NCBI GenBank assembly: GCA_017435485.1
Contig: JAFSEY010000013.1
Location: 600 to 64,599 of the forward strand
Source of the DNA: Bacilli bacterium
GTDB taxonomy: Bacteria > Bacillota_I > Bacilli_A > RF39 > UBA660
DNA length: 64,000 nucleotides
Direction: 5' to 3'
Position 1 is the stretch's first letter, and each line of letters starts with the position of its first letter. The notes beneath the pieces are model-generated. The model was given only the letters and a program-made list of their open reading frames with translations. It was not told the origin of the DNA and did no database searches. Below, one piece after another: positions 25,769 through 56,712 of this stretch. Made by a program: the position numbers and the translations under genes.

Positions 25769-26644
25769 TTATTTTAAACCTCGAGGATTTGAATCATCAT
25801 AATAGCCAAATTTTAGGTTTGAAGTATTAAATATTTCTTGAAAGCATTTTTTTAATACCTTTTTACTTTCTATAGTTTCTATTGGCTTTATTAACTCAAA
25901 ATCATTTAACACTATTGAATCAGAAAAACAATCATCAATTTTCATAGATTCTATTTTTATGTTAGTGTTAAGTAAATTTTCTATATCTATACAAGTTTTA
26001 ATATACTTGCTAAAAAAATCCAATATCTTTCGAAATATTTGTTCTTGCCAATGTAAAGGGATCAACTCACTTTTATCTATACAAAAAAAGATATATACCC
26101 AAGCATCATATGTGCAAATTTGATTTATGATATTTTCAAAGCCATACAGTATGTTAAACATTGGGTTATTTTTTTCCCTACTTTTTGTATTTAAATTATT
26201 AAACAAAACTGGAAGCTTACCCACTTCTTTAGAAAATTCATCTTTTTCTAGATCTAATTGCAAGATTATTTTATTTAATCTCTTATGGATAAGATCATGA
26301 AACATAGCACATATGCCCAATTGAATCACGGTAAAAGCACAAGCTATACTATCTTTTAAACTGTAAATATAAATTTTTGTATTATCTTGTTCAATGTAAT
26401 CTCCGCATGAATTCGGTGTCTTTAAATTTGATTTATCGCTAATTTCAAAATAGCATACTTCTCTTCTTTGACGACCTAAATATGTAGCCATTTCATTTTC
26501 AATACTTTGTAAAACTTTAATTCTTTGTTCAGCATTTAATTTTTCCCAATTTTTATCTACTAAATAAAATAAATTTTCTTCTGAAATCAAATTAATCACC
26601 TTCAAAGTAGTTTTTATTTTAGCTATTAAATCATATTTTGTCAA
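25769..26644 (-). CDS. hypothetical cytoplasmic protein downstream of the bacteriocin peptides (start uncertain)
   Basis: The 291-aa ORF as given starts at a TTG directly abutting a hairpin and has no RBS. An in-frame TTG 54 nt downstream is preceded by GAAGGTGA and is the more likely start (about 26590). Confidence 0.45.
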   Translation of the reverse strand: MTKYDLIAKIKTTLKVINLISEENLFYLVDKNWEKLNAEQRIKVLQSIENEMATYLGRQRREVCYFEISDKSNLKTPNSCGDYIEQDNTKIYIYSLKDSIACAFTVIQLGICAMFHDLIHKRLNKIILQLDLEKDEFSKEVGKLPVLFNNLNTKSREKNNPMFNILYGFENIINQICTYDAWVYIFFCIDKSELIPLHWQEQIFRKILDFFSKYIKTCIDIENLLNTNIKIESMKIDDCFSDSIVLNDFELIKPIETIESKKVLKKCFQEIFNTSNLKFGYYDDSNPRGLK

Positions 26645-26649
26645 TTAAT

Positions 26650-26674
26650 AAAGATATCCGGTTGGATATCCTTA
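26650..26674 (-). terminator. hairpin (GGATATCC-aacc-GGATATCT) immediately 3' of bacteriocin peptide gene 2
   Basis: 8-bp stem with one G-U pair plus a U-rich tail (TTTATTAATT), read from the sequence. Likely a terminator or attenuator after the structural genes. Confidence 0.45.
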
Positions 26675-26676
26675 TT

Positions 26677-26835
26677 TTAACAATATTTTTTTGAAAAAAA
26701 TCTTCTAATTGTTGTTCCAACAATTTGGCCGAGATTTAAAAGTGTTGATGCCGCTCTGGATAAAGCATTAATGAAGGATGCTGAGATAGCTCCGCCATTA
26801 ATTTGCGTTAATTCATTTTTATTTAATGTTTTCAT
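26677..26835 (-). CDS. class II bacteriocin-like precursor peptide with a double-glycine leader (52 aa)
   Basis: Absent from the ORF track. MKTLNKNELTQINGG | AISASFINALSRAASTLLNLGQIVGTTIRRFFSKKYC: hydrophobic residues at -4, -7, -12 and -15 of the leader, a GG cleavage site, and a cationic amphipathic core. Its ATG overlaps the stop of peptide 1 (ATGA). Confidence 0.65.
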   Translation of the reverse strand: MKTLNKNELTQINGGAISASFINALSRAASTLLNLGQIVGTTIRRFFSKKYC

Positions 26836-26978
26836 TTTTTCAGACATTTTAATGGTCTTATTAAACCATCAAATACTCCTATAATGAATACTCCAAATCC
26901 AGCTATTGCAGCTAGCACACCAACTTTAATCCCGCCTCCTTCAACTATTCTTAAATCATTATCTGTTAATTTTGTTAT
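26832..26978 (-). CDS. second double-glycine-leader bacteriocin-like peptide (48 aa); ATA sits at the expected initiator position
   Basis: (I/M)TKLTDNDLRIVEGG | GIKVGVLAAIAGFGVFIIGVFDGLIRPLKCLKK. Leader residues match the -4/-7/-12/-15 pattern. GGGAGG lies 7 nt upstream of the ATA codon and there is no in-frame ATG/GTG/TTG. The core contains GxxxG (GVFDG). Confidence 0.5.
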   Translation of the reverse strand: MTKLTDNDLRIVEGGGIKVGVLAAIAGFGVFIIGVFDGLIRPLKCLKK

Positions 26979-26990
26979 TTTAAAACCTCC

Positions 26991-29042
26991 CTACTTATGA
27001 AAATTTTTAGGCATGTTTATACAATAATCAAAATATTTTCTTAAATTTTTATGACTTACATAAATAATCGTTTTATTTCGATAATATCTTTTTATATTTT
27101 TAATAATTTCTATTTCAGTTTTAATATCAACTTCACTTAAAGCTTCATCAATAATTATAAAGTTGCCGTTTTTAAGCAAATTTCTTGCTAAAATTATTTG
27201 TTGTTTTTCTCCTCCTGAAAGATTAGTAAGACTATCGGCTATATTACTTAAGAAGCGTAAAGGTTTTTTGGCAATTATTTTATCTATCAAACATATTTGG
27301 CAAACTCTTTTAAATTGTTTTTTTGATATATTGCGATGACAAATAATATTTTGATAGATAGTATCAGAATAAAGACTTTCTTTTTGATTAATAATCGTAA
27401 AATTATCTTTAATCCATTTAGCACTAATATCTTTATAATTTAATTTTCCCAACAAAATATCCCCTTGATAATTATTGATTTCTTTATATAAGCACTTTAT
27501 TAAAGTACTTTTACCACAACCAGATAAGCCATTTAAAAAATAACTTTTTCCAGTTCTTAATTTATAACTAAAGTTATTAATTATATTTGTGGTATCGTCA
27601 TAGGAAACTTGTAAATTTTTAATTTGAATATCATTATACTCAGGAACAAAAATCCTATTATCTTTTTCTTTGGGTAAATTTCTAAATTCACTAACTTTAT
27701 ATATTGAGTTTTTAAGATAATAGAATTGAGGAATAATACTTATGATGCTTTCATAAGATGTCGAAAACCAATTAATTAGAGAATTAAAGGTAATTAAATT
27801 TATTAAATCAAATTTATTTAATAATATTTGATATAGCGCATAGGTATTTAGTAATAAAAAGCCTAAGTCTTTAACAATTAATTTTAAAACTTGCTCTATA
27901 TTTATTATCCGTCTTAAATCATCATCAGTTCTAATTACTTCTGACAATTTATAATCAAGCCATAAATTTATTTGGGGCTTAATCTGTAAATTATTGATAC
28001 TAGTAGCCATTTCGATGTTTTCAATCAAACAAGTATTGTAATCTGTTTCGGTATCCATCCAACATCTAATTTTGGTGTTTACTTTATTAGCAAAAAGTAA
28101 AGAAATTATCGTGTACAATATATATGTAATTAAAATAATTAAAAATAATTTCAAATTGATTAAGGCTAACATACCAATACTAGCAATTACTAATAAAACA
28201 TCAAGTAATAAAGTAATAAACATCTCTGAAAAAAACTCTTTTATTTCTTTTAGTTCATTAACTCTAGTTATTATTTCTCCAGATGTTTTAGTTTGTAATA
28301 TATTTAAAGGAAGAAAAAAGATATGACTTACAAAATCTGATATTAAACTTTTATGAACGGTTTTATTTAACTTATTATATAATCCGTTATGCCAAAATGT
28401 AATTAAAGTTTTTAAGAGTGTAATTAATACGAATGATATAAATAAAATAAACATTAAATTTGTTTTATTGTTATGGATTAGAAAGTCACCAATTTCTAAA
28501 TAAAAGCCACTTAATAAACTAAATATCATTATTAAGAGACTTAATAAAATTATTAGAAGGTACTTTTGTTTTTCTTTGAACAAAATTTCGAAAAAGAAGT
28601 GTACTACGTTAGTTTGCATTGGATAATTTATTATTTCGTGTTTTGGTTGGAAATCTATTATTATATTGTCCCATTGTTTAAGGAATTCGGCCTGAGTTAA
28701 AACTAATTTTCCCTTAGCAGGATCCATTATAGTTAATCTATCATTTTTTATTTTATAGATTACAACAAAATGGTTAAGGCCATTTTCTAAGATTACATGA
28801 GCTATAGCTGGTAATCTTGTTATATTTTTAAAATTTTGACATTTCATCCCGTTAGCTTCAAAGCCATAAGATTTGGCTGCTTTGATTAAATGATATGCAC
28901 TAGTCCCCCGATCATCGGCATAAGTATCTAATCTTATTTTTTCTAACGGAACATTTCCATTATAATGACGTATTATACTAAGTAAACAACAAGGTCCACA
29001 ATCTTTTAAATCTCTTTGATAAACAATATCCTTTCTTTTCAT
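26991..29042 (-). CDS. bacteriocin/peptide ABC exporter with N-terminal C39 peptidase domain (ComA/LagD type)
   Basis: N-terminal QRDLKDCGPCCLLSII...HFVVIYKI (C39 Cys/His), six TM helices, Walker A GLSGCGKST, signature LSGGEKQQ, Walker B IIIDEALS. Confidence 0.9.
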   Translation of the reverse strand: MKRKDIVYQRDLKDCGPCCLLSIIRHYNGNVPLEKIRLDTYADDRGTSAYHLIKAAKSYGFEANGMKCQNFKNITRLPAIAHVILENGLNHFVVIYKIKNDRLTIMDPAKGKLVLTQAEFLKQWDNIIIDFQPKHEIINYPMQTNVVHFFFEILFKEKQKYLLIILLSLLIMIFSLLSGFYLEIGDFLIHNNKTNLMFILFISFVLITLLKTLITFWHNGLYNKLNKTVHKSLISDFVSHIFFLPLNILQTKTSGEIITRVNELKEIKEFFSEMFITLLLDVLLVIASIGMLALINLKLFLIILITYILYTIISLLFANKVNTKIRCWMDTETDYNTCLIENIEMATSINNLQIKPQINLWLDYKLSEVIRTDDDLRRIINIEQVLKLIVKDLGFLLLNTYALYQILLNKFDLINLITFNSLINWFSTSYESIISIIPQFYYLKNSIYKVSEFRNLPKEKDNRIFVPEYNDIQIKNLQVSYDDTTNIINNFSYKLRTGKSYFLNGLSGCGKSTLIKCLYKEINNYQGDILLGKLNYKDISAKWIKDNFTIINQKESLYSDTIYQNIICHRNISKKQFKRVCQICLIDKIIAKKPLRFLSNIADSLTNLSGGEKQQIILARNLLKNGNFIIIDEALSEVDIKTEIEIIKNIKRYYRNKTIIYVSHKNLRKYFDYCINMPKNFHK

Positions 29043-29129
29043 TTTTCTCCCTTCATTAGTTATATTGCCAAAAAGGGAGTTAATTTCCTTTTAAAAAACA
29101 AATCTTTTTTGAGATTTGTTTTGTTTTTT

Positions 29130-29852
29130 CTATTTTTTTCTTTTATTCAATGTTTTACTCTTTTTCCAATTTTTCATAATATCAAACTCGTCTTTATAAT
29201 TTGATAAAACATCAGGAAATGCTTTTAATAAGCGGTTTGGATACATTTTTAATTTATCAACTTTTTGTTTTAATTTATCTTCAAATAAATTTGGTAACAT
29301 ACTTAATTTTTCCTTTTTAAGTTCTTCAACAATTATTAATCTACTTCTTAAATTGTAAGCTACTATACAAGAAAAAATTGTATCAGCAAGTAGTAAAATA
29401 AGCAAAATTATAAAAATAACTATTAACCAAGTTTTAGGAATTCTTAAAACAAACTTTGATACAAATGGATGAATAAATTCTATTAATCCAACACTGCATA
29501 AACCAAATAAAAAAGCATTTAATAAACATACTCTTCCATTTATATTAAACTTATTTTGACTATAATCCCACCATTTATTATGAAATACTTTTTCTAAAAC
29601 ATAGCTTACAATATACTCTAAAACACTAGCAATTAAGGCACCAAAAATAAATAAGGCAATATAATCATGAACATATCTTTTTAAAAGAAGGATCATCCCT
29701 ATCGCTCCCATTCCATATATTGGACAAATCGGGCCACATAAAAATCCTCTATTAATTATCTTTTTATTTAAGATACTCATAAAAAACACTTCAACTATGT
29801 AACCAATAAAACTATATATAATAAAGTAAATAAATATTTCAACTAATGCCAT
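29130..29852 (-). CDS. polytopic membrane protein, first gene of the bacteriocin operon (candidate immunity/accessory protein)
   Basis: 240-aa product with about six TM helices and a basic C-terminal tail. No confident family assignment (possibly CmpB-like). Confidence 0.4.
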   Translation of the reverse strand: MALVEIFIYFIIYSFIGYIVEVFFMSILNKKIINRGFLCGPICPIYGMGAIGMILLLKRYVHDYIALFIFGALIASVLEYIVSYVLEKVFHNKWWDYSQNKFNINGRVCLLNAFLFGLCSVGLIEFIHPFVSKFVLRIPKTWLIVIFIILLILLLADTIFSCIVAYNLRSRLIIVEELKKEKLSMLPNLFEDKLKQKVDKLKMYPNRLLKAFPDVLSNYKDEFDIMKNWKKSKTLNKRKK

Positions 29853-29974
29853 AAGTAATCTCCTATAAATATTATTATACCATTAATTCGTTTTAATGTA
29901 AATTTATAAAAAAAAGCAATCTAATCTTGTGATATCCAATTTATTGTTATATAATATTTTTAGAATAAAAGAAG

Positions 29975-44036: not shown

Positions 44037-46070
44037 TCATAAACAAATATCCGACTCATGATTTCCATATGCATCATATGTACGATAACCTAATTTATAC
44101 GGATCCTTTTCAGTACCTTTTCCACCACAATAAATTACATTTGTATTTAAATTAATGACTGGTCTAATATAAGCCCCAATTTGATTTTGATAGGTTATTT
44201 CATCTATCTGATTACCATATTTATCATATATGTAAGTTTTTAATCCATCTTTTGGTTTATCATTTAGCTGTACTATCCGCCCATTATTACCATCAGTTTG
44301 CCTTAAAGCAAAGTAATAAGCCCCTGTTCTCTTTTGCGAATCAGTATAATCAGTATAAGATAACGTCATTGTCCAAAACATTTCTTTAGAGTTGGCATGG
44401 TCAAATAAGTAACTTTGCGTTCCAATTTCAGAAGTATTATAATTTACCCCTGCAAAAACAGCTTCATCAACTGACAACAATCCAATCGGATAAGTTAAAT
44501 CACCATTTCCTAAATATTCTAAACTAGAAATATAACTATATACAGGCTGACCAGGCTGATTAAGTTTTGTCAAAGTATAATATTGATAATAATCTCTAGC
44601 ATTACTATTTTGATAAGCATAAGGTATCCTATCATTTTGATATGCGATTAAATTTTTTTCACTAGATTTTGTTGACGGTGAAATCTTATACGTTGTATAA
44701 CTACTTTTTGCCACAGGATTTCCATATAATCGTACAATTCCACCATTAGAACCATCTACTCCAGTTGTAAAACCCGCGTTTAAATATTCGGTATTATTTG
44801 CCACATTATATCTATTTAAATTTAATACTTCATTATTTTCTTTAGTAGCTATATTACCCGAATCAGGACAAATCAAACTAGGAACTTTCTTATCTACGAT
44901 TCTTTCCCAACCAGAATAATAATACCGCTCAGTTTTTTTATATATCTCCCCCCCCTTTTCAAGTAATTTTTCTAAAAAGTTATCTGCTTCTGCTTCATTA
45001 TCCTCAGTACAATTAATACTTTTACCGGCATCATCTGTACATTTAGTTCTATTTTTATCTCCGCAAAAAATTGTCTCGGCACTTAACATGCTTGAATTTA
45101 ATGAAGCTTTCTCATACCATTTGTCTATGTAACTTTTTATTTCACTAGAATCTTGATTATCATATTTACTATCATATCTGTATAATAACGCTTCTTCATT
45201 ACTCATATATCCAATATTATGAAGTAGATGAGCCCCTAAAACATTACCTGCATTTTCACAGCTTTTACCATATTCATCTGATAATAAATTATCTAAATAT
45301 TCCGCTTGGTTTTCTGCAATTTCTAACCCAAAACACGTTGTTGCTTTGCACAAGTTTTTAAGTAATTTTTCTTCACAATTTTCAAGGCAGGCATTAACAG
45401 ATTCCCCAAGAGTTGTAGCTCGCTCATTCACAATATTTAGCACAGCTTGTCTTACATCACATTCAGTGCTGTTATATCTACTATAATTATATTTTGTCAA
45501 ATCATTTGATGCAGTAATATCAATATAATCATTTCCATCTTTAAGCTTTGATTCATTTGAAGCTGCAGAAGAATTATATTCGCCTTGATATATTAATCTA
45601 ACAGTATTGTTACCATTGATTCTAACAATTCTCCATATATAATTTCCAAATTTAACATAATTACTATTTACTTTACCTCTATAATAATAACTATAATTAG
45701 GACTAGTATTTGATGTTCTATACATTCGCGAATAATCATCTAGAGTAACAAAAAATCCACTTTCTTCTGTATCGTCAGTTAATTGTTTTACTGAAAGATT
45801 ATTCTCATCATTTTTTAATTTAACTGTATCAGGATTGCCATTTGCTTTGACATAACCTTTTTTCATGGCTTCAGTTTTCTTTATACACTCAGCCAATGAA
45901 TCACCAGATTCACATACAGCAATCTCATCTTTAGGAACCCAAGTTGGCACTTTATCTTTTAGATATCTTTTATTAGTGTATGAAGCTAACATAGCTAACA
46001 TTATTACTAAAAAAACTATAAAGAACGAATAAATAATTGATATTGATATAAATCCATTTTTCTTTTTCAT
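44037..46070 (-). CDS. large (677-aa) pilin-like/minor-pilin-associated protein with an N-terminal hydrophobic anchor
   Basis: N-terminal KKNGFISISIIYSFFIVFLVIMLAMLA (pilin-like but lacking Glu+5), followed by a long Asn/Tyr/Ser-rich extracellular region. Sits inside the pilin operon. Confidence 0.45.
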   Translation of the reverse strand: MKKKNGFISISIIYSFFIVFLVIMLAMLASYTNKRYLKDKVPTWVPKDEIAVCESGDSLAECIKKTEAMKKGYVKANGNPDTVKLKNDENNLSVKQLTDDTEESGFFVTLDDYSRMYRTSNTSPNYSYYYRGKVNSNYVKFGNYIWRIVRINGNNTVRLIYQGEYNSSAASNESKLKDGNDYIDITASNDLTKYNYSRYNSTECDVRQAVLNIVNERATTLGESVNACLENCEEKLLKNLCKATTCFGLEIAENQAEYLDNLLSDEYGKSCENAGNVLGAHLLHNIGYMSNEEALLYRYDSKYDNQDSSEIKSYIDKWYEKASLNSSMLSAETIFCGDKNRTKCTDDAGKSINCTEDNEAEADNFLEKLLEKGGEIYKKTERYYYSGWERIVDKKVPSLICPDSGNIATKENNEVLNLNRYNVANNTEYLNAGFTTGVDGSNGGIVRLYGNPVAKSSYTTYKISPSTKSSEKNLIAYQNDRIPYAYQNSNARDYYQYYTLTKLNQPGQPVYSYISSLEYLGNGDLTYPIGLLSVDEAVFAGVNYNTSEIGTQSYLFDHANSKEMFWTMTLSYTDYTDSQKRTGAYYFALRQTDGNNGRIVQLNDKPKDGLKTYIYDKYGNQIDEITYQNQIGAYIRPVINLNTNVIYCGGKGTEKDPYKLGYRTYDAYGNHESDICL

Positions 46071-56349: not shown

Positions 56350-56712
56350 TTTAAAATCAAATAATATCTCATAAGCCATGTTCTGTCCTTAAAATTAAGG
56401 GACAAATATTTATCTACCATTACTGGTCCTCTATTAGATTCTTTATTCTCTTTTAGAAGCTCCCCTACCATAATTTGGGTTTCTCGCTTGTGGGGTTTAC
56501 CACGTTCCACTCCGTTTCGTTTCCAAAACAGCTCGTCTCTTTGGCACTTTTATATCTACTATAACCATTTAAGGTTATTTCGAAGCCGTTAGCATACACT
56601 ACCTTAGGTTATTTTTTCCCTAAGCACAAACACTACAACCATCACAGGTTGTGCGAGCATGGACTTTCCTCTACATAATAAATTTATGCAGCATTTGTCT
56701 CGATATTATTCG
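56350..56712 (-). ncRNA. rnpB: RNase P RNA (bacterial type B)
   Basis: The minus-strand sequence contains GAGGAAAGUCCAUGCUCGCAC, GUGGAACGUGGUAAACCCCACAAGCGAGAAACCCAAAUUAUGGUAGGGGA, GGACAGAACAUGGCUUAUGAGA and a P1 pairing (AAUAAUAUC/GAUAUUAUU). These are near-identical to the conserved cores of B. subtilis RNase P RNA. The patch is locally GC-rich, and it lies next to gpsB as in Bacillus. Ends are approximate (about 10 nt). Confidence 0.85.

Follow-up and report, generated by a model that had tools for sequence, protein, structure and literature searches.

A class IIb-like bacteriocin operon whose first precursor is predicted to start at a conserved AUA or AUU codon behind the exporter stop

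This report concerns a peptide-export locus on a 64,000-nucleotide stretch of contig JAFSEY010000013.1 (assembly GCA_017435485.1, a Bacilli bacterium); the whole stretch is called the window below. The source organism is an uncultured, low-GC gut bacterium, and the locus is chromosomal, a little upstream of rpsU-yqeY. On the minus strand, a gene for an ATP-binding cassette (ABC) exporter with a C39 peptidase domain (29042..26991) is followed by two small genes, here named pepA (26978..26832) and pepB (26835..26677), and then by a terminator. A sequence-only reading of this DNA had proposed just this layout, with two double-glycine peptides overlapping at ATGA between an exporter and a hairpin, and translations, domain matches and folding bear it out. 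The start of pepA appears to be an ATA codon, conserved as ATA or ATT across eight sub-lineages. The features at the centre of the locus are these:

26991..29042, minus strand: C39-peptidase ABC exporter of 683 amino acids, with Peptidase_C39 (2e-34), ABC_membrane and ABC_tran domains
26986..26990, minus strand: Shine-Dalgarno sequence GGAGG, abutting the ABC stop codon and 7 nt ahead of the ATA
26832..26978, minus strand: pepA, 48 codons, with putative initiator ATA at 26978-26976 and stop TGA at 26834-26832
26677..26835, minus strand: pepB, 52 codons, with ATG at 26835-26833 inside the pepA stop overlap ATGA and stop TAA at 26679-26677
26640..26681, minus strand: intrinsic terminator after pepB, a stem with GGAUAUCC and a U-rich tail (-16 kcal/mol, z = -5.1)

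The first small gene opens with ATA, then ACA AAA TTA, and its translation comprises a leader, ITKLTDNDLRIVEGG, which may also be written (f)M/I-TKLTDNDLRIVEGG, and a core, GIKVGVLAAIAGFGVFIIGVFDGLIRPLKCLKK, of 33 amino acids (charge +4, computed monoisotopic mass 3412.06 Da). The second comprises the leader MKTLNKNELTQINGG and the core AISASFINALSRAASTLLNLGQIVGTTIRRFFSKKYC, the latter of 37 amino acids (+5, 4017.20 Da). Read from another ATG, at 26847, pepB would have the 56-amino-acid form called in GenBank; the ATG at leader position -15 is favoured by the sequences of a divergent related locus, L050, and of the outgroups described below. Both leaders are 15 amino acids long, hydrophobic at -15, -12, -7 and -4 and ending in Gly-Gly (-2/-1), as the sequence-only reading had described them. 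Both cores are hydrophobic, carry a single Cys close to the C-terminus, and contain a GxxxG motif: G19VFDG23 in A (GIVDG in L050) and G21QIVG25 in B (GQTLG in L050). In the wider family (peptides P0009-P0184), each peptide likewise has exactly one C-terminal-proximal Cys, within RPLKC in A and within KKYC, VCKV or YCPL in B. An interchain disulfide between A and B is conceivable, and for class IIb it would be unusual.

The exporter ends in TAG at 26993-26991. It matches TIGR01193 and NF045998, under the cut-off of both, and in four lineages the exporter keeps Gln9, Cys15, His91, Asp107, Walker A, the LSGGE signature, Walker B and the H-loop unchanged. Its C39 domain would cut each leader after Gly-Gly, and both peptides would then be exported.

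The sequence upstream of pepA is compact. GGAGG follows the exporter stop directly (GGGAGG, if the final G of the TAG is counted) and is separated from the ATA by the spacer TTTTAAA. No ATG, GTG or TTG occurs between the in-frame TAG and the Gly-Gly site; the earliest canonical codon in the pepA frame is a GTG six residues into the core, which would leave a 28-codon open reading frame (ORF). A ribosome-binding site 7 nt from the ATA, with no alternative in-frame start, had been pointed out in the sequence-only reading, and the sequence agrees. That reading had offered three explanations for the ATA: a non-canonical initiator, a recent start loss, or a sequencing error. The first fits what we found, whereas start loss is contradicted by eight sub-lineages and error by identical assemblies.

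Apart from the rarity of ATA starts, nothing favours the view that position 26976 is truly G and its A a sequencing or assembly error. L001-L003, assembled from three further samples (one as an ENA metagenome assembly, two as Logan run assemblies), match the window at 100% identity for 7-12 kb, ATA included, and the 461-nt region is the same in all three. Loci L057-59, which are 96-98% identical to the window, also have ATA, and the codon recurs in strains that differ by 2-15%. Because the identical ATA appears in the three other assemblies and again in L057-59, we regard an error as excluded, its chance being negligible.

Related loci were collected by searching for homologues with pepA, pepB and an alignment as queries and then fetching the contigs that encode them. 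An initial DNA-pattern scan of metagenomes gave zero matches, and a scan of a genome collection with the ABC protein gave distant, irrelevant matches only. The codon at -15 of the A leader is ATA or ATT in all eight sub-lineages (four deep lineages) retrieved:

ATA at -15: the window; L057-59; L060 / L016-17; L018-23 / L007
ATT at -15: L015; L008-14; L050-52

The exporters of these lineages are 86, 71, 70 and 43% identical to that of the window, and YqfD identity falls to 40%. The eight sub-lineages share one gene order, namely a membrane-protein gene of family PF06541, the ABC gene, pepA, pepB, rpsU, yqeY, yabP and yqfD. In 8/8 of them GGAGG is invariant and touches the ABC stop, be it TAG, TAA or TGA, and the spacer to the ATA or ATT measures 7-10 nt. 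The codon itself stands in 8/8 sub-lineages and in 0/11 outgroup peptides. No lineage has an in-frame canonical start between the preceding stop and the leader, the sole exception being a TTG far upstream in L007, a 620-nt contig. Over six leader variants, position -14 takes five different residues and position -13 four, and position -15 is constantly AT[A/T]; the pattern of Leu at -12, Leu at -7, a hydrophobic residue at -4 and Gly-Gly is kept while the remaining residues vary.

The pepA core appears to be under strong purifying selection. Within the clade the ratio of non-synonymous to synonymous changes (pN/pS) is 0-0.27 and frames are intact throughout; the core differs from that of L060 by 9 synonymous and no non-synonymous changes and from that of L050 by 17 and 8. 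With 22 of 29 residues the same between the window and L050, against 43% identity for the exporter, the A core is better conserved than the rest of the locus. These observations bear on the view that pepA is a pseudogene, inactivated by a recent ATG-to-ATA start loss, with pepB as the sole active product. Such a view accords with the lack of a canonical start and with the fact that several gene callers skip or shorten pepA. It is difficult to square with an ATA or ATT in 8/8 sub-lineages down to 43% ABC identity, with the low pN/pS and intact frames, with a leader consensus retained despite sequence variation, or with the dependence of pepB on pepA translation through an ATGA overlap and a missing Shine-Dalgarno sequence. 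Nor would recent horizontal copies of one dead allele explain the pattern, given synonymous divergence of up to 0.76. Since the codon is found in all eight sub-lineages and the gene is under purifying selection, we reject a recent start loss, which seems to us very improbable; the comparison indicates that the non-AUG start of pepA is genuine, old and maintained.

The genome does not share this peculiarity. The 63 long ORFs of the window are intact under translation table 11 and all have a canonical start near the 5' end (their stops are TAA in 39, TAG in 13 and TGA in 11); thus, the organism is not a general user of ATA or ATT starts. A search for conserved RNA structure around the pepA start found none, and the region is open and AU-rich.

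Other routes to the A peptide were considered and set aside. One is that the exporter carries pepA as a C-terminal extension, through stop readthrough or TAG reassignment. Such a fusion would need a shared frame, and the ABC stops of the window and of L008 do share one with pepA, at 12 and 15 nt ahead of it; in L057, L018, L015 and L050 the distance is 13 nt, hence a different frame. As the stop-to-start distance is 12, 13 or 15 nt, the upstream sequence is not coding in frame with pepA. Further, the ABC stop varies among TAG, TAA and TGA by lineage, and all three end normal genes of the window, which together with the 13-nt spacings makes an exporter-pepA fusion extremely improbable. Genetic code 4, in which TGA is read as Trp (giving "KKWKC" in some ENA calls), is incompatible with long ORFs that are intact under table 11, 11/63 of which end in TGA; we attribute the "W" in the ENA calls P0002 and P0003 to callers that applied table 4 to short low-GC contigs. 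Reassignment of ATA to Met fails on the ATT of sister lineages and on the interchange of ATA and ATT at conserved internal Ile positions. Finally, the internal ATG called as the start in L008, L018 and L050 would leave a leader of only 4-7 amino acids without the -12 and -7 residues, and it is not present in the window.

More distant homologues suggest the direction of change. Among the A-type genes of eleven outgroups with readable DNA, nine start with ATG and two with GTG, and the nearest outgroup, L053, is one with GTG. Peptides P0009-P0024 start with Met, save P0010, a shortened gene call of the ATT lineage L050. A family profile searched against 1.84 billion representatives returned at least 505 clusters at 50% identity (E <= 1e-3), and among the best 150 family representatives 126 have a leader of 13-16 amino acids from a called canonical start. 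Because these more distant homologues start canonically, the ATA or ATT appears to be a derived state fixed in one clade. The outgroups differ in a second respect: loci L024-L028, L033, L037, L046, L053 and L054 carry, between the ABC and A-peptide genes, an ORF of 131-176 amino acids with a single N-terminal transmembrane segment, which is missing in the ATA/ATT clade. A Pfam scan of two of these ORFs, those of L053 and L054, gave no match; they probably encode a mini accessory or immunity protein. In several metagenome loci this ORF ends in a motif like YNKQ[KR]II[TK]KIK. In P0137 (190 amino acids) an accessory-type ORF continues in frame into an A peptide with Ile-Ile at -15/-14 and no Met, which may mark a further lineage with a non-canonical start. 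The 530-amino-acid "cluster member" P0006 is unrelated and is a clustering artefact.

The start of pepB has also changed. In the window and in L008 it is a bare ATGA overlap with no Shine-Dalgarno sequence of its own, whereas outgroup pepB genes have TAGGAGG-N5-ATG; pepB thus appears to have lost its own Shine-Dalgarno sequence in the ATA/ATT clade. The pepA/pepB junction is conserved in all lineages as ATGA or TAATG (the latter in L050), together with one terminator behind pepB, and AUGA and UAAUG junctions are known to couple downstream ORFs that lack a Shine-Dalgarno sequence (PMC9955659). With no such sequence and a start within the AUGA overlap, pepB would be translated by ribosomes that have finished pepA and re-initiate there.

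We therefore read the locus as a class IIb-like operon in which pepA is initiated at AUA or AUU behind the exporter stop, translation is chained from ABC to pepA to pepB, and the two peptides act together; we would put the probability of this reading at roughly 0.6. GGAGG, placed right behind the ABC stop in an unstructured, AU-rich stretch, would direct initiation at AUA (AUU in the sister lineages), and translation would run along the chain. The weak start would cap or condition precursor output relative to the exporter, and the AUGA overlap would hold A and B near 1:1; two-peptide bacteriocins require roughly equal amounts of both peptides (PMC2850506). Once exported, the cationic GxxxG cores would act together on a target membrane. 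The use of AUA or AUU, lowered or gated expression, re-initiation after the exporter gene and the antimicrobial nature of the peptides are what we infer here. AUA and AUU starts yield about 1-2% of AUG output in E. coli reporters (10.1101/063800), with 5-7.5% quoted for an older case (PMC5499595). As mRNAs with non-AUG starts are preferentially penalised by nutrient limitation and, in vitro, by guanosine tetraphosphate (ppGpp) (PMC5499595), pepA output could respond to initiation factor 3 (IF3) or ppGpp.

The assignment to class IIb draws on several features: two adjacent genes in one operon, 15-amino-acid double-glycine leaders, a C39 ABC exporter and GxxxG motifs. Class IIb preforms have a double-glycine leader of 15-30 residues (PMC2850506). 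Scored with Ile1, pepA reaches 22.4 bits against TIGR03949, the lactobin A/cerein 7B family, for which the curated cut-off is 21.5 bits; the values are 24.0 for L018, 22.7 for L008, 16.9 for L050 and 22-29 for the outgroups, and the pepA of L015 gives no match. The match spans the leader and the Gly/Ala-rich part and excludes the RPLKC tail. The pepB leader scores 19 bits against TIGR01847 (cut-off 15.7). Searches of the PDB, plasmids, Pfam and NCBIfam found no solved structure, plasmid homologue or dedicated family for these peptides. No family member is known to have been experimentally characterised. The C-terminal motif of pepA, FIIGV(F/I)DGxxRPLKC, is not known from lactobin A or cerein 7B.

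Several points weigh against our reading. The TIGR03949 score is marginal, barely over the cut-off, with two of the ATA/ATT lineages under it. An immunity gene always accompanies class IIb peptide genes (PMC2850506), and none was found in the operon, where nothing lies between pepB and the terminator. The operon likewise has no accessory protein gene, the space between the ABC stop and pepA being 12-15 nt. In an E. coli coupling reporter that lacked a Shine-Dalgarno sequence, AUA failed as a re-initiation codon (PMC9955659); unlike that reporter, the pepA start has one. The related loci were retrieved through the peptides themselves and give no count of clade members without the locus. Finally, the stable position of the locus and an A core more conserved than the exporter are atypical of fast-evolving bacteriocins, so that another role may be possible. 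The class IIb call of the sequence-only reading thus holds for the operon, the leaders, the exporter and the GxxxG motifs, finds a mixed picture in the TIGR03949 scores, and falls short on an immunity gene and an accessory protein. The locus is class IIb-like on paper and a candidate member of the class.

The last of these points leads to a different view, that the peptides are not weapons and instead serve as a conserved secreted signal or a self-directed membrane factor (for example in sporulation or community behaviour) that uses double-glycine export. A signal or developmental factor is possible because the chromosomal place is stable, beside rpsU-yqeY-yabP-yqfD from the ATA/ATT clade out to loci with 30-40% ABC identity, and because no part of the locus is more conserved than the A core; the lack of an immunity gene and the low-level expression implied by an AUA or AUU start point the same way. 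No histidine kinase or response regulator is encoded nearby, however, the cationic and strongly hydrophobic GxxxG cores are typical of pore-forming two-peptide bacteriocins, and the TIGR03949 and TIGR01847 matches speak for a bacteriocin. On balance, we consider a non-antimicrobial role unlikely.

If the locus is a class IIb-like operon with a chained non-AUG start, the codon need not be regulatory. ATG may have decayed under AT pressure and the result may be tolerated, through efficient re-initiation on a strong Shine-Dalgarno sequence after the adjacent ABC stop. The GC content of 26.8%, the abutment of stop and Shine-Dalgarno sequence in every lineage and the GTG of the nearest outgroup all suit such a history. 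Yet some 63 other long ORFs of the window keep canonical starts under the same pressure, one base change would restore ATG and 0/8 sub-lineages have it, and the failure of AUA in the E. coli system argues against easy re-initiation. Neutral decay is, to us, a possibility with the odds against it. Of about the same standing, and offered tentatively, is the proposal that AUA or AUU is a selected control: with the accessory-type gene lost, pepA would be made chiefly where ribosomes are also translating the exporter gene of the same mRNA, in a manner sensitive to IF3 or ppGpp, and this would protect a producer without a dedicated immunity gene. Were this so, it would be the first toxin-type peptide to have its dose set through a conserved non-AUG start in a chain with its exporter.

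The neighbourhood adds the following features:

29874..29902, minus strand: promoter-like site TTTACA, 17 nt, TGgTATAAT, upstream of the PF06541 gene; scored 11/12, with an extended -10
29130..29852, minus strand: polytopic membrane protein of 240 amino acids, PF06541 ABC_trans_CmpB (Pfam E = 2e-52), with about six hydrophobic segments
29095..29122, minus strand: terminator-like hairpin and U-run between the PF06541 and ABC genes (-9.3 kcal/mol, z = -3.3)
25769..26590, minus strand: orphan protein gene (the "291-aa" ORF), with its start more likely at TTG 26590

The promoter-like element, TTTACATTAAA...TGGTATAAT, is found in the window, L018, L008, L009 and L015 and is probably the main promoter of the block. 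In the same five loci the sequence CAAATCT...AGATTTGTTTTTT of the hairpin at 29095..29122 is conserved; this hairpin may be an attenuator or a leaky terminator. A further hairpin, CUCCCUU...AAGGGAG at 29044..29076 (minus strand), lies in the 5' untranslated region of the ABC gene and is predicted to sequester its Shine-Dalgarno sequence. Folding predicts this structure for the window, L018 and L008 (-11 to -13 kcal/mol, z -2.5 to -3.8) and not for L015 or L050; it may gate translation of the entire chain. The hairpin that the sequence-only reading placed after the second peptide gene is the intrinsic terminator listed above, its folding energy and z-score bearing that proposal out; L018, L008, L015 and L016 have hairpins in the same place with other stem sequences, for example GGUAUCC/GGAUACC.

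The two flanking proteins had been suggested as immunity or regulatory partners, and neither suggestion fared well. The PF06541 protein (GenBank MBQ9834556.1, "putative ABC transporter permease") is encoded syntenically in all loci of the ATA/ATT clade (57-89% identity) and only there, being absent from the 3 kb upstream of the outgroup loci; it has its own promoter, is set off by the terminator-like hairpin, and has no documented tie to bacteriocin immunity that we found. To call it an immunity factor would be a guess. The orphan protein has no Pfam or NCBIfam match and is not a membrane protein, and its AlphaFold2 model has a mean predicted local distance difference test (pLDDT) value of 36. 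Its gene is complete in the window strain and L057-59 only; L060 has a 199-amino-acid version, L015, L016 and L017 have fragments, and L018, L008 and L050 lack it. The gene lies beyond the terminator, and a promoter-like site of its own (TTGACA-17-TAAAAT) is found at 26644..26616. Because it is absent in most lineages, behind the terminator and separately promoted, it is not a conserved partner; its length of 291 amino acids, too, is probably overstated, given the more probable TTG start.

Some observations concern the window more broadly. L018 is 94-96% identical to the window in nucleotide sequence from rpsU on and about 85% across the bacteriocin locus and upstream, a drop that suggests quicker evolution or recombination there. 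At 44037..46070 (minus strand), a 677-amino-acid ORF with a strong Shine-Dalgarno sequence belongs to no Pfam family at E <= 1e-3. A bacterial RNase P RNA of class B (56367..56706, minus strand; 263.7 bits), consistent with a Firmicute, was the only hit of an Rfam scan, and a tRNA scan of the 64-kb window found none.

Annotation of the locus is uneven. The sequence-only reading was wrong to call the peptides unannotated, as the NCBI Prokaryotic Genome Annotation Pipeline (PGAP) names both in GenBank: pepA as MBQ9834554.1, "class IIb bacteriocin, lactobin A/cerein 7B family", 48 amino acids with Met1 at the ATA, and pepB as MBQ9834553.1, "bacteriocin", in the 56-amino-acid form from the upstream ATG. 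In a sister metagenome-assembled genome the same pipeline shortened the pepA orthologue to a 39-amino-acid "hypothetical protein" (MBQ4583823.1), and in most assemblies Prodigal-type and other callers skipped, truncated or over-extended pepA or read TGA as Trp. Bacteriocin mining restricted to ATG, GTG and TTG would overlook the A peptide and misclassify the locus as a single-peptide one.

Conserved non-AUG starts are rare in bacteria, and those known belong to genes for regulators or translation factors. The present clade appears to keep a near-cognate start on a secreted, toxin-type gene across exporters diverged to 43%, in a genome that is otherwise canonical. What seems new is a class IIb-like operon whose first precursor would start at a conserved AUA or AUU chained to the exporter stop. 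A literature search on non-canonical starts in bacteriocin genes, incomplete in its coverage, found no relevant paper. In some 60 nt, the locus offers a natural and easily cloned test of how a Shine-Dalgarno sequence, an adjacent stop and an AUA or AUU codon work together in low-GC Firmicutes.

Comparison with known systems places the locus between several of them. Classical class IIb systems such as lactococcin G and plantaricin EF/JK resemble it in their two adjacent small genes, double-glycine leaders, dedicated C39 ABC exporter and cationic GxxxG cores. It departs from them in that the operon, which opens with the exporter gene and closes with the peptides, has no immunity or accessory gene, the A start is non-AUG, each peptide has one conserved Cys, and the locus is chromosomal, stable in position and slow to evolve. 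PCAT1 and its cargo CtA of Clostridium thermocellum (PDB 7s5j) are a second point of reference, a C39 ABC exporter of a low-GC Firmicute that adjoins cargo genes with double-glycine leaders. Like the ATA/ATT clade, which lacks one, PCAT1 is not known to have a separate accessory protein. Its cargo core is unrelated, though, with the family profile matching the CtA leader weakly and in a leader-like, non-significant manner (E = 0.2), and no non-AUG start is known there.

For the start codon itself, the confirmed conserved non-AUG starts listed for E. coli are infC and pcnB only (10.1101/063800). These two genes (both AUU, infC under IF3 autoregulation) and Streptomyces sigR (GTC, IF3-repressed) share with pepA a conserved near-cognate start at one gene amid canonical starts elsewhere. 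They encode regulators or translation factors, whereas pepA would encode a secreted toxin-type precursor, alternates between AUA and AUU, and begins 12-15 nt behind an exporter stop; and whereas infC and sigR are tied to IF3, such a link is only hypothetical for pepA. Lastly, the junction of the two peptide genes resembles ordinary coupling through AUGA or UAAUG stop-start overlaps, in that AUGA spans the end of pepA and the beginning of pepB and that pepB in most lineages has no Shine-Dalgarno sequence, and differs from it in that the upstream partner would itself start at a non-AUG codon.

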